Shown piece after piece: positions 33,823-59,549 of a DNA stretch of 64,000 bases. Origin of the DNA: Clostridiaceae bacterium. GTDB lineage: Bacteria > Bacillota > Clostridia > Saccharofermentanales > DTU023. The DNA lies in the NCBI GenBank assembly GCA_012841145.1, contig DUVH01000015.1, positions 37,237 through 101,236 of the forward strand. Reading direction: 5' to 3'. Both the position numbers and the translations under genes were made by a program. Position 1 is the first letter of the stretch. The number at the start of each line of letters is the position of its first letter. The notes under the pieces were generated by a model that was given only the letters and a program-made list of their open reading frames with translations, was not told where the DNA came from and made no database searches.

Positions 33823-35578
33823 TGAAAACTCGGTCGAATCCGCCTATCGCCACAACGGGATTCATGATTCCGCGCGTCACGCGAAAGGCATCGGTCGTGT
33901 AGAAAGCGTTATCTCGAAAAAACGATGATGTCTCATCTTTTGCCACGATACGTCCGTCAAAGATTAACGAACACTCGTCGGCGATATCTGCAGAAAATTC
34001 GAGATCGTGTGTGACAACGAGCAGCGTCATCGCTCGATCACGAAGGCGATTAAAGATCTCAGCGATCTCACGTTTATTCACGGCATCGAGTCCTTTGACA
34101 GGCTCATCGAGCAAAAGGACATCAGGCTCCAAGAGCAAAATCTTTGCGAGCGCACCCTTCTGCATCTCGCCTCCGCTCAAATCGTAGGGATGACGCTCTA
34201 AAAGATGGATCAGACCGAGACTGTCCGCGACGTCCAATACGCGTTGCTCATCATAGTTTCCTAGAGAACGATGTTCCATCAAATCGTCCATGAGTGTATC
34301 GCGAGCAAAGACTGCTTGAGGATTCTGCGTAAGGAGACTGACTTTGACATTAGGAGCGCGCACAATTTTGCCGTACTGCGCTCTCAAGACGCCCGCAAGA
34401 AGATAGAGCAACGTGCTCTTGCCGCTGCCGTTGCCTCCGACAAGCGCGTGAATCGTACCGCGGTAGAGTTCGAAATTCAAGTCCTCCAGAACAAACGGCG
34501 TTTCACTCCTGTAACGAAACGAGAGTCGCTTCACTTGAAGAAGAGGCTTTTCTCTTGATTTGCATTCCTGTAATCTGCTGACTGCGGCACAACAGTCCTC
34601 TGTGGTGCTAACGTGATGTTGTGATGATGTACGGCTATTAATTGCTATGTTCGTTTGACTGCCGCATTTTTCGCCGCCGCTACTTTCATCAGCACTTTTG
34701 GGAAACGACATACGGGACAACTGTACTCTCGCTTCCTGTACGGAGAGCGGAAGCGCGCAATTCTCGCTTTTCAGCGCTCCTTTCGATTCTTCAAGAGCTT
34801 GACGTGCTCTCCAAACAATCTGCGTTGCCGCGGGCAATGCGTATTTGAACGGCTTATCGCTCTCGAGAAGATGCAATGCAAAATCGTACGGTGTTCCGGA
34901 AAAGGAGATTCGTCCGTCCTCCAGATACAACACATCGCTCGCCATTGGGAGCACATCGCCCATCCTATGCTCCGACATAATGATCGTCGTGCCGATTTCA
35001 CGGTGAACGCGTTGCAACATGTTGAGAAGATGCTTGATCGCCACCGGATCGAGTTGAGCCGTCGGTTCATCGAGGATGAGAACGTGCGGGTGCATGATGA
35101 GAGCCGACGCAAGATTGAGAATCTGCTTCTCCCCTCCGGACAGCTCACTGACTTTCTTGTGGATCCAGTTCGATATTCCGAAGAAGTGCGCCGTCTCCGC
35201 GATGCGGCGCTCGATCAGTTCAGGCGACAGCCCGCTATTCTCAAGCCCGAAAGCCAACTCATGCCAGACGACATCCATGACGATCTGGTTTGTCGGGTTC
35301 TGCATGACAAAAGCAATATCGAGAAAAGAATGATGTCCCGATGAACCGTGCGGAACATCGCCATTGAAATGAATGGTGCCTTCTCTTTCTCCGTGCGGCG
35401 CAAGCTCAGGCTTTAGACATCGCAAGAGTGTCGTCTTTCCGCTCCCGCTCGGACCCGCGACAACAGTAAAAGAGCCGGGCGCGACAGAGAAAGAGACACC
35501 GTCAACGGCTTTCTTGTCACTTCCGGGATAGCGGAAACTGAAGTCCTTAATCACGATGCCGCCCGATCCGATCATCAT
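33785..35578 (-). CDS. fused ECF-transporter ATPase (EcfA-EcfA' duplicated ABC ATPase)
   Basis: 597 aa. Two Walker A sites (GPSGSGKTT, GGNGSGKST) and two signature motifs (LSGGEKQ, LSGGEMQ), joined by an S/T-rich linker. Confidence 0.9.
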   Translation of the reverse strand: MMIGSGGIVIKDFSFRYPGSDKKAVDGVSFSVAPGSFTVVAGPSGSGKTTLLRCLKPELAPHGEREGTIHFNGDVPHGSSGHHSFLDIAFVMQNPTNQIVMDVVWHELAFGLENSGLSPELIERRIAETAHFFGISNWIHKKVSELSGGEKQILNLASALIMHPHVLILDEPTAQLDPVAIKHLLNMLQRVHREIGTTIIMSEHRMGDVLPMASDVLYLEDGRISFSGTPYDFALHLLESDKPFKYALPAATQIVWRARQALEESKGALKSENCALPLSVQEARVQLSRMSFPKSADESSGGEKCGSQTNIAINSRTSSQHHVSTTEDCCAAVSRLQECKSREKPLLQVKRLSFRYRSETPFVLEDLNFELYRGTIHALVGGNGSGKSTLLYLLAGVLRAQYGKIVRAPNVKVSLLTQNPQAVFARDTLMDDLMEHRSLGNYDEQRVLDVADSLGLIHLLERHPYDLSGGEMQKGALAKILLLEPDVLLLDEPVKGLDAVNKREIAEIFNRLRDRAMTLLVVTHDLEFSADIADECSLIFDGRIVAKDETSSFFRDNAFYTTDAFRVTRGIMNPVVAIGGFDRVFNVAQEEPCDGIG

Positions 35579-36579
35579 GAATTATCCCTCTTTCTCTCAT
35601 CGATCACGACGCATGAAGCCAACCTCCACCGCCCGGCATCGTGACGGCGCGGCAGCATCGCCGCGACATACGGACTGATCTCATCTGATGAACGATGGCG
35701 CCTGAGACATAGCTCATCACGAAACCATTCACCTAAATCCAGCAGGAGCGGAAGCGCCCCCAACGTTGCGAAAGCACATACGAGGACGTAAAGGCGTCCG
35801 CCTTGCAGAGCGCGTGAGGGAACGTACCACTCAGGATAAAAGAGAAAAGCCGCCCCCCCCATGGCGATACCGACGACAGCCAAACAGGTCAGTAGAACAG
35901 TCAGCAAAACAGGCAACACATCGCGCTGCATCCAACGGACGCGCGCATAAGGTCGGCGAAGTCCCGACTGGTAACCTTTTGCTCTCATCGCGTCGGCCGT
36001 CTCTATGGCGTTTTCCATACTCCATGCCATGAGAATCGAAGCGAGACGAACCGCACGCGTTACCTTCGCTTTTCGTTGTCGATCATCTGAACCGAGCAGA
36101 GCCCGCTGACTCATATCGATCTCCCGTCCGTGTCGAATCGTATCGGGGATATAACGAAAAATCATCGATACCATCATGCTGATCACTGGCAATCGTTTCC
36201 CCAGCATCGCAAGAAAGCGACCGTTATCCATCAAGTCACTGTAACAGGAAAACCAAAACAGCACTGAAAGAAGTGTCAGCCCTGAGATAAATCCGTAAAG
36301 TAATGCTTCCAAGGAGAATGACCTTCGACCGATCGTAAACAGCACCGTCATGCCGCGATCATTCGCTACGGCATTGAAACAAGTGATAAACACAAGCATC
36401 GGCAGGATGTAGAGCAGCGATTTCAATGTTTTGACAACACCCGTCAAGCGCCATCTCATAAAAACTGCGAAAAGAAACGAAATGCCCGCGATCACAGGGT
36501 GGCGAACAAGCATCGTCACCAACAGCACGGCGGCAAAATAAAGGAAGATGACTGTAGGATGATAGCGTTTCAGGGCCAA
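35575..36579 (-). CDS. ECF-transporter transmembrane (T) component (EcfT/CbiQ family)
   Basis: 334 aa polytopic protein (YHPTVIFLYFAAVLLV...). 4-nt overlap with the ATPase gene. Confidence 0.8.
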   Translation of the reverse strand: MALKRYHPTVIFLYFAAVLLVTMLVRHPVIAGISFLFAVFMRWRLTGVVKTLKSLLYILPMLVFITCFNAVANDRGMTVLFTIGRRSFSLEALLYGFISGLTLLSVLFWFSCYSDLMDNGRFLAMLGKRLPVISMMVSMIFRYIPDTIRHGREIDMSQRALLGSDDRQRKAKVTRAVRLASILMAWSMENAIETADAMRAKGYQSGLRRPYARVRWMQRDVLPVLLTVLLTCLAVVGIAMGGAAFLFYPEWYVPSRALQGGRLYVLVCAFATLGALPLLLDLGEWFRDELCLRRHRSSDEISPYVAAMLPRRHDAGRWRLASCVVIDERKRDNS

Positions 36580-36611
36580 CGGTCTTCGAACTCCCTTTCT
36601 GAGGCTTGACG

Positions 36612-37427
36612 TTACTTGACGTCACCTTTCTCAATCGTGTACCCCCAGTGTACGACATCGCCGTCATTCAGAATACATTGACCGGCACCTTTCATCACAA
36701 AGACGCCGTTGACGAGATAGACCCATCCGCTGTAAGATCCGCCCTCTTTTTCAGCGAGTCCTCCGATCGCCACAATATAACCGGGATTGAATGCGCTGAC
36801 CTTAACATCCAAGGGAAGCGAAAGCAAGGCATCGTACACAGTCGTATCGCGTGGAAACGAAGCTGTCTTTTTGAGCATATGACCGTCGGCCGAGCATAGA
36901 TTTTTCTCAATCATATAATCGATCTTATCCTCAAGACCGGAAAACTCTTTTTTGCGAAGAACGGCGTTGCGGCACTCGACGACAAACGTAACGGTGATCT
37001 TATCTGATACAGTTGTCGGCGGCGGCGTTGTCGACCGACTAGTCGACGTCGTTACCGTCGTGACGCGACGCGTCGTTTTGGTGACACGGCTTGTTGTCGT
37101 CTTGGCAGTACGGCTTGCAGGCGACTGTGTTGTCGTACCGGACGTCGACGTACCGGATGAAGTCTCCTCTGTCGCCGTACTCTCAGCCGGCAGCTCGCTA
37201 TCAGTCAGCTTATCTGATGCGCCGTATAAAACAGGTGTACTGGAGGAAGTGTCGGAAGGCGAATCTGACGTGCTCAACGTCGGTTCGGCGAGACTGCTTG
37301 TCGCAGGATCCACGCTCTCGATCACAGGCGGCGCACACGCGACGCAGCTTATGACCAGCAGACAGGCCAGAACTAAGACGACCCGCCGAAGCGTGGTTTC
37401 AGTTTTTTGCTTGCTGTACTTCAACAT
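36612..37427 (-). CDS. lipoprotein with S/T-rich linker and C-terminal DUF4430 (transcobalamin-like beta) domain
   Basis: 271 aa. Signal peptide with Cys lipobox (LLVISCVAC), ~120 aa S/T/P-rich linker, then a DUF4430-like domain (ITVTFVVE...GWVYLVNGVFVMKGAGQCILNDGDVVHWGY). Confidence 0.7.
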   Translation of the reverse strand: MLKYSKQKTETTLRRVVLVLACLLVISCVACAPPVIESVDPATSSLAEPTLSTSDSPSDTSSSTPVLYGASDKLTDSELPAESTATEETSSGTSTSGTTTQSPASRTAKTTTSRVTKTTRRVTTVTTSTSRSTTPPPTTVSDKITVTFVVECRNAVLRKKEFSGLEDKIDYMIEKNLCSADGHMLKKTASFPRDTTVYDALLSLPLDVKVSAFNPGYIVAIGGLAEKEGGSYSGWVYLVNGVFVMKGAGQCILNDGDVVHWGYTIEKGDVK

Positions 37428-37539: not shown

Positions 37540-39759
37540 TTACTCGTCGGAAACCGTCGAATGTCTCCTCTTGCGTGCCGCGCATACGAACCCTGCTGAG
37601 AGGGCAACAAACAACAGCCCTGCAAACACGAGTTCTCGCGTCTCGCCCGTCGGCGGTATGCCGTCCAGCGCCGGCTCCTTCGCCTCCGCTTTTTTCACGC
37701 TCATTTGGATCGCGAAGATATGCCCGCTGTCGTTCGTATAATAGATCGTCCCCTTCCCGTCTGTTACAGGACTGGCCGTGCAATAATTCCGCTGATCTTG
37801 AACAGGTTCGTGCGCCATCTTGACGTCTTTGCCGTCGTAGACATAAAGCGCGCCCGGTTCATTATTCGCCGTAAAGAAGGTGAACGGATTACCTGTAGCG
37901 CCCGCGATCACAAGCGGCGCCGATTTCACATCTCCGACAACGTCGTATTGAAAGTCGATCGCCATGGTCGCAAGATCGATCACGGCGAATACGCCTTTGC
38001 CCTCTTTAGCGCCTCCGACGTAGGCTTTCCCTCGATAGATGGTCGGCGTCGACGTCGACACTTGACCGATCTTAACACTTCTGAGCTTGCCGAAACTGCC
38101 GTCCTCTTTGTTGAAAGTTATCTCGTGGAACTTGCCGTCACGCGAGGTAAAGTAGAGTTTTCCGTCGGCGTGAACGATCGTCGAGCGGATCGGCCCACCG
38201 ATGTTCACGGTGTTTTTAGCAACTACAGGTTGCGCGAGTGTATCAATCGCCTCGAGACCGCCGCCGTCATTTCCGATGACAAGCCATTTTCCGATCTTCA
38301 CGGGACCTGCCCAGTAATAGCCTGCAGCTGAGTTTTGATATTGCCACAGCGTTTTGCCCGTCGCCATGTCGATTGCCCGGATAATCCCGCCTAGAGCGGC
38401 ACCCTCCTTGTCAACGGCCGTCGTCGTAGAATAAGCAACTTCATCGGCGATAAGAAGCGTCGCAAGGCTTTGAATGCCGTGATTGGTAGGTTGCCATGCC
38501 TCATCATAGATTGTTATCAGGTCTTGCGCCTCGGCGACCCACTTTGTCTTCATCGTCTTCGCGTCGACCGCCTGAACGGCGCCGCCGTCAAGAGGAACAA
38601 CGACGAGTCCGTAATCGTAGGCAAGTCGACCGAAATAGCCGATGGTGTTGCGGAGCGTCTCTTTCGCGATGACATCGCCATTCCCGTTCAGCTTGAACAA
38701 TTCATTACCAGCCGCGAAGTAGAGATTGCCGCCGATAATCAGAAAGTCGGACTTCGTGGCGTAATAGTCACCCCATTCAAATTTAATCTTTTCCCCGTAC
38801 GTATTACTCCAAAGAAGCTTAAAATTACTCTCCAGCGTGCCTTCAACGTTCTTGGCGGCGTTGTGGAGACTGCCCGATCCGAAGCTCGTCCAATAATCGG
38901 GGGTCATTATTAAAGCGAGCGGTGAATCGGGCGTCTCCTGCGCGATACTGAGCGGATATCTCGGATCGTTGACAAACTTCCACTCGATCACGTCATCGGC
39001 CACGGGAATCGTTTCATCCATTCCCTTTTCTGCGCTTTTGCCGTTGATCAGCAGATACCAATAAGAGTTTTGCCCGTTGGTGACGCCTCCGGTGTTCGTC
39101 TTGCCTTCCACGGTAATCTCGTTAAGGAAAGACCCCCAATCAGAGGAAAAAATGACGACCGATCTGTTATTTGCCTGATCGTCGAGCAACTGTTTTGTAA
39201 TGTCGGCAACCGTCTTGCCGCTTTCGATCTCGACCTTCTCGCTCAACCACGGCCCGCCATCGTACGCCGTCTCTTGGTCGCCTTTCGTTTCGAGAATCTT
39301 GGAACCTGTCACGGTGAACGTCACCGTAATCGTCTCCTTAACGCTCTCAGCGGGAAGTGCTGCTAAACCGCCCTCTTCAGTCGCGACTTCCTCCGAAGAG
39401 TCCGCGGGCTTCTCCCCTTCCGAGGTGTTGGCGCCTCCCTGTTCAGCTTCCGTCGCAACTCCCTTAGTAGAGTCTGCGGGCTGCTCCCCGCCCGAGGCAT
39501 TGGCGCCTCCCTCTTCAGCTTCTGTCACAGGGTCTTGCCCGCTGCTCGGAGCTTGCGACTCCGCATTCGGATCGCCAGCCGTTTCTCCTCCGGACTCAGA
39601 CGCTTCCCCTCCCGTCGAGCCCTCGCCGCTTCCCGTTTCCGTCGCAACCGTCTCGCCGCCTTGCGCTGACGCATACGTTGTCGGCATGACGAACGGCGCA
39701 ATTGACACCATGAGCGCCACAATCACTAAGATGGCGCCCCATCTTTTCAGTTCCTTCAT
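37540..39759 (-). CDS. cell-wall-anchored surface protein: acidic tandem repeats + DUF4430 domain + PQQ/BamB-like beta-propeller + [LI]PxTG sorting signal
   Basis: The ATG at 39759 is 8 nt after GGAGG (the track ORF starts at an upstream TTG, 39774). The protein has a signal peptide, a DUF4430-like segment (ITVTFTVTG...YWYLLINGKSAEKGMDETIPVADDVIEWKF), repeated beta-propeller-like blades, and a C-terminus IPPTGE + hydrophobic helix + ARKRRH. Confidence 0.75.
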   Translation of the reverse strand: MKELKRWGAILVIVALMVSIAPFVMPTTYASAQGGETVATETGSGEGSTGGEASESGGETAGDPNAESQAPSSGQDPVTEAEEGGANASGGEQPADSTKGVATEAEQGGANTSEGEKPADSSEEVATEEGGLAALPAESVKETITVTFTVTGSKILETKGDQETAYDGGPWLSEKVEIESGKTVADITKQLLDDQANNRSVVIFSSDWGSFLNEITVEGKTNTGGVTNGQNSYWYLLINGKSAEKGMDETIPVADDVIEWKFVNDPRYPLSIAQETPDSPLALIMTPDYWTSFGSGSLHNAAKNVEGTLESNFKLLWSNTYGEKIKFEWGDYYATKSDFLIIGGNLYFAAGNELFKLNGNGDVIAKETLRNTIGYFGRLAYDYGLVVVPLDGGAVQAVDAKTMKTKWVAEAQDLITIYDEAWQPTNHGIQSLATLLIADEVAYSTTTAVDKEGAALGGIIRAIDMATGKTLWQYQNSAAGYYWAGPVKIGKWLVIGNDGGGLEAIDTLAQPVVAKNTVNIGGPIRSTIVHADGKLYFTSRDGKFHEITFNKEDGSFGKLRSVKIGQVSTSTPTIYRGKAYVGGAKEGKGVFAVIDLATMAIDFQYDVVGDVKSAPLVIAGATGNPFTFFTANNEPGALYVYDGKDVKMAHEPVQDQRNYCTASPVTDGKGTIYYTNDSGHIFAIQMSVKKAEAKEPALDGIPPTGETRELVFAGLLFVALSAGFVCAARKRRHSTVSDE
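39367..39525 (-). repeat. 72-bp coding tandem repeat (~2.2 copies) in the surface protein N-terminal region
   Basis: Peptide units are TEAEEGGANASGGEQPADSTKGVA / TEAEQGGANTSEGEKPADSSEEVA / TEEGG. The DNA units are visibly near-identical (GAGG(T/C)(G/A)TTGGCGCCTCCCT(G/C)TTCAGCTTC). Confidence 0.85.
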
Positions 39760-39825
39760 CGATAAAACCTCCAATTCCTCTTGTCGATGGACCTGGGGTT
39801 TTGCTCGTTTCGGGATGCGTCGCCA

Positions 39826-40218: not shown

Positions 40219-41799
40219 TTACCACTCGGGACATCTGTACACACCGATGAGAATCGGCGTATTGTACTTTCCCTCTGTCAAACAGAAGATAAACGGACGA
40301 TCAAAAACAGCCTCCAGCGACATCCGGTCGACGGCATCGAGACCGTGCGCGTCGGGTTCATGGACTGAACCGTCAATCGAGAACTCAATGACTTGATCGA
40401 TCACAGGAAAGGATACGCCTTCGCCGTCTAACCACTGCAGATTTACGGGCATCTTAATAAACTCGCACAACTCCTCTACACATGAAGAGCCGACGAGATT
40501 GTGCCTGTCGGCGATTTTGAACATAGGGAATCGAGCGACGGCGTTCTCACCAGCCGGATCTGCCGTCAGAAGTCTCGTAAAGAAATGATCCTGCCTCAGC
40601 AGATCATCGGGTGTCAAATCTTCATCGGGTAAAACAAGATAGATATTGCCGCCCTCAACAGGCAATTCACATGCGACCGCGCCGTCGAGCTGAAAATGCC
40701 TGAGCGACGCATCATCGGAATCGTAAAATGACAAATCTGTTAATGTTCCGCGAGATGTATGGAACACTCCCTCGCTGAGGTTAACATCCGCCAGACTGCG
40801 TTTCGACATGGCATCGATGTTACACCGGAACGTAAGCAGCAGTTCATTCCCGGGATTCCAGCGGGCGGAATCAACTGACTGAGAAAACACAACAGGCACA
40901 GGATCATCCGGCTCGCTTTCCAACGTATAGACATCGAATAAATATCTTTTACACAGTGATCCCAACAACGTCCGGTCACACTTCTCATACAAGTCTGCGC
41001 CCATCAACAATGAGTTTTGCGCATCGAATTCATCTATTGAGAAATGGTATGGAAAAGAGCTCGCATCAAACTCATCTTCATCGGGCACATCTATATCCCA
41101 GCGATCAAGCAATGCAAGCCGATCGCTATCGACGCTGTCAGCAAGGAAAGCGAACATCTGGTACAGATTAAGGGGTGAGTACACGGCATTTACCTCGCCA
41201 CCGGAGAGAACTTGACAGGCAGATTGATCGGCCAAGCGCGCGATCTCTCGCGACACGGCAGATGCGCTTTCATCACCTGTCGTCGTTGTCGGTTTCATTG
41301 GAGGCATTTCGATCGACTCGATGGCTTTAACGGGCTTATCACTATCTAAAAGGAGGAGGTAATCGTTTTGAGCTACGACTCCCTCGAGTGAATCAAAGTC
41401 GTGCGAGTCAGACTTTTGCCCCGGGGCGTTCTGCATTTCGAATTTTGCGGAGGCGTCTTCCGGCGCCCTCGCACCCTGCGTGGCATTCAAAACGAAGAGG
41501 ATGCCGAAGACGACGACGAGACACGCCGCGATACTCGCCACGGAAATTAAGACCTTGCGATTCGACCAGCCCTTGCGTTTGTTTCGCACGTTCATGTTGC
41601 GGCGATCGTCGGACGCAGCTTGAAGGACAGTTTGATTTCGCTCGACTTCGACAGCGGAACTAGCGTCAATACGGCGAAGAGGCATCCTGATGACGTTCTT
41701 CCTCTTTGCAGGCTCGACGTCGAGCAGCAAGTCGTCATCAATCGACGAAAGACTTTGCATCAATCGATTTAACATCTCTTGCTCATCACTCATAGCCAT
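40219..41799 (-). CDS. single-pass membrane protein with extracytoplasmic serpin-fold domain; putative anti-sigma factor by synteny
   Basis: 526 aa. About 95 aa cytoplasmic N-terminus, a TM helix (VLISVASIAACLVVVFGILFVL), then a serpin-like domain. Serpin landmarks: NAVYSPLNLYQMFAFLA, ACELPVEGGNIYLVLPDE, VARFPMFKI, and the C-terminal FDRPFIFCLTEGKYNTPILIGVYRCPEW (compare the serpin F-x-a-D-r-P-F-l-F...G-r-v-x-x-P). Its start overlaps the sigma gene by 14 nt. Confidence 0.7.
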   Translation of the reverse strand: MAMSDEQEMLNRLMQSLSSIDDDLLLDVEPAKRKNVIRMPLRRIDASSAVEVERNQTVLQAASDDRRNMNVRNKRKGWSNRKVLISVASIAACLVVVFGILFVLNATQGARAPEDASAKFEMQNAPGQKSDSHDFDSLEGVVAQNDYLLLLDSDKPVKAIESIEMPPMKPTTTTGDESASAVSREIARLADQSACQVLSGGEVNAVYSPLNLYQMFAFLADSVDSDRLALLDRWDIDVPDEDEFDASSFPYHFSIDEFDAQNSLLMGADLYEKCDRTLLGSLCKRYLFDVYTLESEPDDPVPVVFSQSVDSARWNPGNELLLTFRCNIDAMSKRSLADVNLSEGVFHTSRGTLTDLSFYDSDDASLRHFQLDGAVACELPVEGGNIYLVLPDEDLTPDDLLRQDHFFTRLLTADPAGENAVARFPMFKIADRHNLVGSSCVEELCEFIKMPVNLQWLDGEGVSFPVIDQVIEFSIDGSVHEPDAHGLDAVDRMSLEAVFDRPFIFCLTEGKYNTPILIGVYRCPEW

Positions 41800-42364
41800 A
41801 CCCCTTTCTTATGAACTTATCCTTCAACTCGGCTCTCATCCTAAACATCAATGATTTGACGGCGCCTTCCGTCATTCCGTGCTCTTCCGCAATCTCGCGC
41901 ACACCCGAGGCGTAGAAATAGCGTTGGATGAAAATGGTTCTACGCAGTTTCGTTTGAGAGCGGAGATACTCGCTGATTACCTCCGCCATCTCGGCATTCT
42001 CCAACAGCCGAACCGTGTCCGCCTCGGATGCGATGCATTCACTTAACTCGTCCAGCAAAAGATTAATCTTTCCGCCTCCGCGTTTACTTCTCGTCTTCTC
42101 TTTTACACGATCGAGCGCATTGTTGCGGGCTATCTTGCACAAATACGCTTTTAAATACTCAGGGCGCTCAGGAGGAATCGAATTCCAAGCGGCCAAGTAC
42201 GTATCGTTTACGCACTCCTCAACATCTTCGCGATTCCCGAGAATGTTCCATGCCAAACTGCGCAACAGAACACCGTATTTATCCATCGACGACATGATCG
42301 CTTCTTCTGAGCGCTCAAAGTAGAGTTCGATAATCGCTTCATCTGTCAGGTGGCCCGATACCAT
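41786..42364 (-). CDS. ECF-type sigma-70 family RNA polymerase sigma factor
   Basis: The track ORF extends to 42406; the ATG at 42364 (MVSGHLTDEAIIELYF...) is the more typical N-terminus. Region 2 (DVEECVNDTYLAAW) and a region 4 HTH (GVREIAEEHGMTEGAVKSLMFRMR) are present. Confidence 0.8.
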   Translation of the reverse strand: MVSGHLTDEAIIELYFERSEEAIMSSMDKYGVLLRSLAWNILGNREDVEECVNDTYLAAWNSIPPERPEYLKAYLCKIARNNALDRVKEKTRSKRGGGKINLLLDELSECIASEADTVRLLENAEMAEVISEYLRSQTKLRRTIFIQRYFYASGVREIAEEHGMTEGAVKSLMFRMRAELKDKFIRKGYGYE

Positions 42365-42586
42365 GCCCTGCGCGGATCTCTCTTTCCGATAATAAGTTGA
42401 CCGCAAGCCGTCTCACAGCCGGCGACAGTCATCTCTCTATCGGAAATTGTATCACGCGCCACATCAATATTTCCTTTCACTGCATAAGACGACAAAAATG
42501 ATCTGCGGTTACGCATAAAGTGCTTAAACACGAACTCTTCTCGGATTCTCATCGATACTTGTTCAATTTGACGAGACTTTTTCCGC

Positions 42587-42615: not shown

Positions 42616-42724
42616 TCGAATGGTTAAAATTATTTATATAAATTTATTTAACATTCATTTCTTAATGACCGACCGCGGTCGAAAGAGTGAAGACGAAGAA
42701 AAGATCTTAGGAGGTCATCATCGT

Positions 42725-59412: not shown

Positions 59413-59549
59413 CTGTCCGAACACGCCTGCCTTTTCTATCATTTGTGTCTGGTTTGCGCCGCAAGACGCGCCAAACAAGCGAGTTAATTGTATCACACTC
59501 GACACTTCGTTCTCGACGGACGACGGGCGTCGTATGGTATGATCTGGGT

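Follow-up and report, generated by a model that had tools for sequence, protein, structure and literature searches.

An ECF sigma factor gene of Clostridia overlapped by a gene for a membrane protein with a serpin ectodomain: a putative protease-sensing cassette

Organisation of the locus

The 64,000-nt stretch of contig DUVH01000015.1 analysed here, referred to throughout as the window, comes from a Clostridiaceae bacterium (GTDB Saccharofermentanales; GenBank assembly GCA_012841145.1). On its reverse strand lies a gene for a sigma factor of the extracytoplasmic function (ECF) type, which is overlapped at its end by a gene for a membrane protein with a serpin-fold ectodomain. The membrane protein is a candidate anti-sigma factor. 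The two genes and the parts of the membrane protein that are referred to below are as follows.

41786..42364, reverse strand: ECF (group 4) sigma-70 family factor; 192 aa counted from the conserved ATG, the open reading frame (ORF) reaching a TTG at 42406
40219..41799, reverse strand: putative anti-sigma factor with serpin ectodomain; 526 aa, conserved start probably 41793
41707..41772, reverse strand: N-terminal cytoplasmic helix/motif, proposed sigma-binding module; residues ~10-31, LNRLMQSLSSIDDDLLLDVEPA, a family-invariant block
41485..41550, reverse strand: single transmembrane (TM) helix; residues ~84-105, Kyte-Doolittle maximum 2.87
41275..41484, reverse strand: juxtamembrane linker, variable and of low confidence; residues ~106-175, with indels, poor conservation and a predicted local distance difference test (pLDDT) score <50 in the full-length model
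40222..41274, reverse strand: serpin-fold extracytoplasmic domain; residues ~176-526, from the AlphaFold 2 (AF2) model, Foldseek and profile matches to the PDB
40318..40371, reverse strand: reactive-centre-loop equivalent with non-inhibitory hinge; residues 477-494, GSVHEPDAHGLDAVDRMS, exposed in the AF2 model

The sigma factor and its overlapping partner

The sigma ORF (41786-42406, reverse strand) gave Pfam matches to Sigma70_r2 (E-value 4e-12), r4_2 (5e-8) and Sigma70_ECF (2e-5) and matched TIGR02937 at 6.5e-18, in agreement with the ECF-type identity given to it in a first-pass annotation made from the letters alone. It contains only the sigma-2 and sigma-4 domains in ~190 aa, as is characteristic of ECF (group 4) factors. 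Translation most likely starts at the ATG at 42364 to give a product of 192 aa, which is also the size encoded by the sigma genes of the homologs. The serpin-protein ORF (40219-41799, reverse strand) shares 14 nt with the sigma ORF. The coordinates of both ORFs and their 14-nt overlap had been given correctly in the first-pass annotation, and the homologs now refine the overlap: in these the membrane protein begins at the second ATG (MSDEQ..., 41793), which would leave an 8-nt overlap, ATGAGTGA, with the sigma gene.

Residues ~84-105 are the sole hydrophobic segment of the membrane protein, and the basic stretch RNKRKGWSNRK is found just N-terminal of it. By the positive-inside rule, the N-terminus of the protein is therefore predicted to be cytoplasmic. 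The predicted N-in single-pass topology with a cytoplasmic N-terminal domain is that of membrane anti-sigma factors. Of the layout first proposed, the cytoplasmic segment and the one TM helix stand, but the cytoplasmic segment is ~83 aa long and not ~95. This part contains neither Cys nor His and hence no HxxxCxxC zinc anti-sigma motif, the absence of which had been noted before. A helix is predicted at residues 5-24, and the N-terminal block LNRLMQSLSSIDDDLLLDVEPA is in register with an 'A.G.IDDdLI.EA' motif present in 93/149 relatives. Beyond the TM helix, the linker is followed by ~350 further residues.

The ectodomain has a serpin fold

The serpin landmarks reported for the ectodomain are present at both of its ends (VYSPLNLY... 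and FDRPFIFCLT...GVYRCP). As a single sequence, the protein matched the Pfam Serpin model (PF00079) below threshold (16 bits vs a 27-bit cutoff, E 0.007) and conserpin at E 0.44. PF00079 was matched by 8/8 members of the window family, i.e. the close relatives described below, with a best E-value of 2.1e-6. An eight-sequence profile of this family matched 52 chains in the PDB, of which 52/52 are serpins, with tengpin as the best match (E 1.2e-5). An exhaustive profile search of 1.84 billion representatives gave 1013 matches at E<=1e-3, and those inspected were serpins. A hidden Markov model (HMM) of the canonical TM-serpins, also described below, matched the membrane-protein ORF at E 2e-23 and no other ORF of the window.

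The structure prediction and fold search that had been recommended were then run. The AF2 model of residues 151-526 had a pLDDT of 86.9 and a predicted template modelling score of 0.90; it was obtained with a 150-sequence alignment made up mostly of canonical serpins, a composition that favours a serpin model. This run replaced one of the full-length protein with an 8-sequence alignment, for which the pLDDT was 41.6. In a Foldseek comparison of the AF2 model with the PDB, the top 50 matches were all serpins (E 7.7e-20 and weaker, template modelling scores 0.6-0.75). The best of them are mostly native-state serpin structures, and miropin, tengpin and PEDF are among the top matches. As the top 50 consist of serpins only, a fold other than that of a serpin is not what the prediction gave.

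Reactive-centre loop and hinge

In the AF2 model, strand s5A comprises residues 462-476, the exposed loop residues 477-494, and strand s1C residues 495-498. The segment from Gly477 to Pro502 spans 25 residues; Gly344-Pro369 of alpha1-antitrypsin is of the same length, and the P numbering of the window loop follows from this. In the consensus hinge of inhibitory serpins, P17 is Glu, P15 is Gly, P14 is Thr, Ser or Val, and P12-P9 are small residues. Insertion of the loop, which inhibition requires, is blocked where inward-facing positions hold bulky, charged or proline residues.

The window hinge reads GSVHEPDA, exactly as first annotated, and the homologs have G-P-V-[HR]-.... At P14 the window has Ser (codon 478, 40365-40367), where most homologs, among them the 99%-identical P0001 cluster, have Pro. 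Across the window family, P12 is His or Arg and P10 is Pro, Ala or Thr. By the hinge rules, residues of these kinds at P14, P12 and P10 would block loop insertion into sheet A. The inhibitory hinge consensus was found in register in 0/7 window-family members vs 83/89 canonical relatives, and the one window-family match to a more permissive regular expression was a false positive, out of register. These counts and residues support a hinge of the non-inhibitory type in the window family, and with it the earlier suggestion that the hinge departs from that of inhibitors. The distal loop segment, PDAVxRMSLEAVFDRPF, is conserved in the family.

The window protein could nevertheless be thought of as a cell-surface anchored serpin that is still inhibitory despite its unusual hinge. 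The loop is of standard length (25 residues, as in alpha1-antitrypsin) and exposed in the model, and the best matches of the model are native, inhibitory-state serpins. Set against this are the Ser or Pro at P14, His or Arg at P12 and Pro, Ala or Thr at P10, which block insertion by the hinge rules, and a consensus hinge that none of the seven family members has and nearly all canonical relatives (83/89) do. Retained inhibition is therefore considered highly improbable.

The window family, canonical relatives and a sister clade

The window family consists of seven relatives (clusters) found among 5.8 billion clustered proteins, with identities of 99-37%. It is distributed over four GTDB species, all of them metagenome-assembled genomes (MAGs): two 'Clostridiaceae bacterium', one 'Bacillota bacterium' and one 'Mageeibacillus sp.'. 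The proteins are named only 'hypothetical protein' (Saccharofermentanales and Clostridiaceae MAGs). A word-indexed search with the mixed alignment A2 added only two proteins.

In ~90 of a wider set of 149 relatives, an N-terminal cytoplasmic motif and a basic stretch precede a single TM helix, which a variable linker joins to the serpin domain. Their motif, MKxEDLxDAxGxIDDDLIxEA, is in register with LMQSLSSIDDDLLLDVEPA of the window protein. An inhibitory-type hinge, e.g. IDEEGCTAAAFT, is present in 83/89 of these canonical serpins with N-terminal module and TM helix. Another ~35-40/149 are lipoprotein or signal-peptide serpins. A sister clade (P0009, P0011, P0037, P0076, P0078 and P0150) has a window-like N-terminus and a truncated serpin domain that lacks the loop; only three serpin fragments are kept, and the coupling to a sigma gene is retained.

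A search from one canonical member gave at least 4,974 clusters at 90% identity (E<=1e-20); the only names given to any of them are 'serpin family protein [Acutalibacter sp.]' and 'serine protease inhibitor'. These comparisons place the window protein on a rare branch, divergent and quickly evolving, of a very large family: membrane serpins of gut and digester Clostridia that are coupled to a sigma factor. Its short N-terminal helix is part of a module that recurs in thousands of clostridial proteins. A survey for other fusions of the serpin-TM-anti-sigma type, one of the checks suggested at the outset, thus returned the same layout in ~90/149 relatives and at least 4,974 related clusters. The accompanying statement that bacterial serpins are uncommon and normally soluble was not borne out, as there are at least several thousand related clusters in Clostridia and the closest relatives are mostly membrane-anchored and sigma-coupled.

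Pairing of sigma and serpin genes

The sigma gene overlaps the serpin gene in every genomic context of the window family (L001-L010). With the canonical alignment, 80 metagenome loci were retrieved. At all loci of serpins with N-terminal module and TM helix for which upstream DNA was available, a preceding sigma ORF overlaps the serpin start by 4-35 nt. The canonical paired loci are L011, L014, L021, L024, L025, L054, L060, L069, L073, L083, L086, L096 and L097/98. In Pfam searches of canonical cassettes, the sigma ORFs comprised Sigma70_r2 and r4_2, and the partners were true serpins (205-216 bits). The pairing also occurs in independent gene calls (an Acutalibacter MAG, L097/L098). At lipoprotein-serpin loci an adjacent sigma gene was found in 0/~55, these being redundant loci from few human-gut species. 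No flanking genes are conserved between cassettes, so that the cassette is autonomous. With this pairing in every related locus examined, the translational coupling of the genes and the predicted N-in single pass, the view that gene position and topology are of the anti-sigma type is supported.

Two loci depart from the one-to-one arrangement. At L097 (5001-7913) and L098 (4732-7644), one ECF sigma gene is followed by two tandem genes for serpins with N-terminal module and TM helix, the N-termini of which are near-identical; hence, there would be two candidate anti-sigma factors per sigma.

A second type of cassette was found at L017 (2827-4745) and L028 (2743-4898), where an ECF sigma of 158-160 aa is paired with a canonical serpin carrying another N-terminal module (...ANEGIHAPEELKQKV...). 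The serpin domains of these type-2 cassettes are 49-56% identical to those of type 1, and the sigma factors are unrelated (~24 bits). A new sigma is thus accompanied by a new N-terminus while the serpin remains ~50% identical, so that the N-terminal module tracks the sigma and not the serpin. This indirectly supports a specific pairing of the N-terminal module with its sigma, and indicates that the serpin domain was recruited independently by, or swapped between, two putative anti-sigma scaffolds. Over 136 pairs, sigma similarity correlated weakly with the similarity of the serpin domain in a global 'mirror-tree' comparison (Spearman 0.09, p 0.29); the informative signal is therefore the clade-specific decoupling and not a global correlation.

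Promoters, leader and serpin genes as output

Three elements precede the sigma gene.

42488..42514, reverse strand: ECF-type promoter GCGTAACC-N15-GTCGTC, presumed autoregulatory; -35 'AAC' and -10 'CGTC', from sequence evidence
42446..42455, reverse strand: sigma-A-like extended -10 element GTGATACAAT, presumed basal promoter; downstream of the ECF promoter
42383..42446, reverse strand: hairpin-forming structured 5' leader, downstream of both promoters and ahead of the sigma start; minimum free energy -32.4 kcal/mol, z -3.66

The element GCGTAACC-N15-GTCGTC is conserved in six loci (the window, L001, L003, L008, L009 and L010) and is present in one copy in the 64-kb window vs 0.07 expected. 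Its AAC in the -35 and CGT in the -10 region are the features of an autoregulatory ECF promoter, as far as sequence can tell. At all loci of the family and the sister clade, the extended -10 element is kept as TGATACAAT/TGTTACAAT. The window contains GTGATACAAT once more, as an exact copy at 59487-59496 (reverse strand), which makes two copies vs 0.09 expected.

In 4/5 family members the leader has a consensus stem, supported by four compensatory pairs; in the sister clade, the foot of this stem seems to covary (TCCGATA/TATCGGA vs CTGCC/GGCAG). The leader matched no family in Rfam, and a mixed 8-sequence leader alignment gave no consensus structure. The hairpin is not followed by a U-tract, and hence is probably not a terminator.

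In canonical cassettes a related motif (TGTAAGAT...GTTGAC) lies directly upstream of the sigma gene. The sister-clade locus L092, which is syntenic with window-family locus L003, includes genes for three lipoprotein serpins with canonical hinges, the sigma and its degenerate partner, arranged head to tail. The sequence CGTAACC-N15-GACGTC, which has the same -35 element as the window promoter and is nearly identical to it, is found ~60 nt before the first of the three serpin genes. A serpin gene also stands immediately before the sigma gene at L093 and L094. Because the L092 promoter stands before serpin genes that run into the sigma gene, the serpins are apparently a direct output of an ECF-type promoter there. 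This arrangement fits a protease-to-serpin regulatory logic, as read from gene order and promoter sequence.

Serpin genes as output also bring in another reading of the pair, in which the membrane serpin is a co-transcribed surface effector under the control of the sigma and not an anti-sigma factor, the sigma being regulated otherwise or only transcriptionally. It would agree with an N-terminus unlike any known anti-sigma domain, with a conserved cytoplasmic element of just ~20-25 residues, with serpins as outputs of the same promoter type in L092 and with the two tandem TM-serpins that follow one sigma in L097. Nevertheless, a cytoplasmic motif present in 93/149 relatives has no obvious role in a mere membrane anchor, and its type switches exactly with the type of sigma while the serpin stays ~50% identical. 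In addition, the lipoprotein serpins of the metagenome set, which are anchored otherwise, are never directly preceded by a sigma gene, and the cassette includes no other anti-sigma candidate. An effector without anti-sigma function is thus considered clearly improbable.

Divergence of the serpin domain

In canonical cassettes, identity is 48-70% in the serpin domain vs 31-73% in the sigma; hence, the canonical serpin domain is conserved no less than its sigma. Within the window family, the sigma factors are 70-90% identical vs 43-62% for the serpin domains, and between the window family and canonical cassettes the values are about 38% (37-42%) for the sigma vs 23% for the serpin domain. This reversal suggests that selection on the serpin domain of the window family has been relaxed or altered, which goes together with the loss of the hinge. 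The fast evolution also makes a decaying or re-purposed sensor a live alternative to the 'substrate-like' bait.

Accordingly, the membrane protein could be a real anti-sigma factor in which the serpin domain is a relic, or has been re-purposed for a non-protease ligand, and protease sensing is not its function. Hormone-binding and chaperone serpins bind ligands other than proteases. Besides the faster divergence of the serpin domain, both within the family and relative to canonical cassettes, such a history would account for the lost inhibitory hinge, for the sister clade with its three loop-less serpin fragments that is still sigma-coupled, and for the lack of a nearby serpin effector gene in the window. 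It is less readily reconciled with a fold that is full-length across lineages of 37-99% identity, with ~100 invariant positions that include core serpin motifs, and with the conservation of PDAVxRMSLEAVFDRPF. The AF2 model is confident, and in the closest clades a sigma of this type is linked to serpin genes. A relic or re-purposed domain is considered unlikely, though it is a serious alternative.

Neighbouring genes

The gene at 37540-39774 (reverse strand) encodes a 744-aa surface protein with an N-terminal signal-like hydrophobic segment, an acidic low-complexity linker, DUF4430 and a PQQ_2 beta-propeller. Its C-terminus consists of IPPTGE, a hydrophobic stretch and RKRR, and resembles a sortase anchor. 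The region 35575-37427 (reverse strand) includes genes for a Ser/Thr-rich DUF4430 protein (36612-37427) and a CbiQ-type transmembrane component (35575-36579). In homologous loci, the CbiQ/DUF4430 genes are followed further on by genes for ATP-binding cassette (ABC) ATPases and an S-component. By sequence, these genes are an energy-coupling-factor transporter cluster with two DUF4430 surface proteins. The cluster is syntenic in close relatives only and is without the ECF-sigma promoter motif. It was considered as a possible regulon of the sigma factor and rejected, as it lacks the promoter motif and is not linked in the distant member L009.

The AT-rich palindrome GTTAAATAAATTTATATAAATAATTTTAAC is located at approximately 42640-42670, in the divergent region between the sigma gene and the acyl carrier protein (ACP)/fab genes, and is conserved in L001, L003, L008 and L010. 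As a MarR-family gene adjoins the palindrome in L003, L008 and L009, it may be the operator of a regulator of fatty-acid synthesis.

Discussion

Pairs of ECF sigma and anti-sigma factors are a major mode of bacterial signalling, for which the signal is mostly unknown. The two overlapping genes of the window probably constitute a two-gene ECF signalling cassette, in which the serpin partner is proposed to sequester the sigma and to act as a sensor of proteases. The N-terminal helix would tether the sigma to the membrane. The signal in ancestral cassettes would be the attack of an extracellular protease on the reactive-centre loop, either by cleavage or by covalent capture with the stressed-to-relaxed transition. 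This attack would mark the anti-sigma factor for regulated proteolysis, and the freed sigma would re-express the cassette, thereby replacing the consumed suicide inhibitor. In the window lineage, where the hinge would be unable to insert into sheet A, the ectodomain would be a sensor only, serving not as an inhibitor but as a cleavable bait or as a binder of proteases or serpin-protease complexes. In a variant of this mechanism, the disordered linker would be the actual cleavage site and the serpin would set the threshold.

Several observations weigh against this proposal. The N-terminal module has no match to a known anti-sigma domain in Pfam, NCBIfam or the PDB, and no recognisable domain of this kind (class I/II anti-sigma domain, zf-HC2, RskA, DUF4179 or RsgI_N) was found in it; an N-terminal profile gave faint matches to DUF4179 (6/43, best E 0.045). 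The loop is near the C-terminus, where cleavage alone does not shorten the ectodomain as classical site-1 cleavage does. In the 64-kb window, no other targets of the ECF promoter were found, nor any other serpin gene by the canonical TM-serpin HMM. The serpin domain of the window family evolves ~2-3 times faster than its sigma, which together with the loss of the loop in the sister clade could reflect a loss of the sensing function. The largely canonical make-up of the alignment used for the AF2 model is to be counted here too.

The proposal may be extended, more tentatively, to the family as a whole. Serpin anti-sigmas would then form a protease-sensing class in which the tethered serpin is both inhibitor and sensor: capture or cleavage of the loop would lead to degradation of the anti-sigma, and the sigma would resupply the serpin. 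The window family and the sister clade would be sensor-only forms, with inhibition either lost or handed to lipoprotein serpins. We regard this wider scheme as possible rather than probable.

Among known systems, SigV-RsiV of Bacillus subtilis, Clostridioides difficile and Enterococcus faecalis, in which RsiV is a direct receptor of lysozyme, is similar in several respects. It likewise consists of a Firmicute ECF sigma and a co-transcribed single-pass anti-sigma in an autoregulated operon; the ectodomain senses (as proposed for the window protein) a hostile hydrolase, and the output counteracts the sensed enzyme. However, the sensor is an RsiV domain and not a serpin fold, and the N-terminal module of the window protein is shorter and unrelated by sequence. 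SigI-RsgI of Clostridium thermocellum (PMC10328401) resembles the cassettes in that clostridial membrane anti-sigmas carry modular, swappable extracellular sensor domains. It differs in that SigI is not a canonical ECF factor and in that RsgI combines an N-terminal domain of its own with a periplasmic domain that is autoproteolytic and with sensors that bind polysaccharides and are not serpins.

Tengpin (2pef/2pee), miropin (5ncs), the siropins (PMC5127057) and Bifidobacterium serpins share the fold and detectable profile homology with the window protein but are soluble or lipoprotein inhibitors with canonical hinges. For none of these has sigma coupling or an N-terminal cytoplasmic module with a TM helix been reported. 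The best match among PDB sequences to the family profile comes from this group (tengpin, see above). In B. breve, a serpin is reportedly expressed under the control of a dedicated signalling system that also regulates its own expression, according to a study of 2012 (reference 138 of PMC8201313). That case is similar in this dedicated control, but the sensor there is a histidine kinase, whereas here it is proposed to be a serpin fused to an anti-sigma module. Non-inhibitory serpins, such as ovalbumin, PEDF, maspin and the hormone-binding globulins, have kept the fold with a hinge incompatible with loop insertion, and in this they are like the window protein. These are eukaryotic and soluble, and to our knowledge none is a membrane-tethered signalling domain.

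A full-text search, with supplements and subscription papers outside its scope, gave no papers joining serpins with anti-sigma or ECF signalling. Serpins are not mentioned in the main text of the ECF classification paper (PMC7826278), and neither the serpin superfamily phylogeny (PMC8233489) nor the gut serpinome review (PMC8201313) mentions sigma factors or membrane anchoring. The genes described here would therefore represent an ECF sigma/anti-sigma pair of which the sensor fold has not been reported before; among such genes, that of the window is an unusual, apparently non-inhibitory member.

A serpin as the sensor domain suggests a concrete signal for such a pair, namely proteases outside the cell, whether they come from the host, a competitor or the cell itself. 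If this is true, the consumption of a suicide inhibitor would itself be the signal, which would be a new regulatory logic. In the databases, anti-sigma factors may account for thousands of the entries annotated as 'hypothetical' or 'serpin family protein'. Human-gut Clostridia, Acutalibacter among them, carry canonical cassettes in abundance. Work on inflammatory bowel disease already looks at gut bacterial serpins as modulators of host proteases, but with no knowledge of their regulation. The cassettes also provide a natural series, from a fused inhibitor and sensor, through a full fold without an inhibitory hinge, to a degenerate domain beside separate serpins, from which it could be learned how signalling makes new use of a metastable inhibitor fold.

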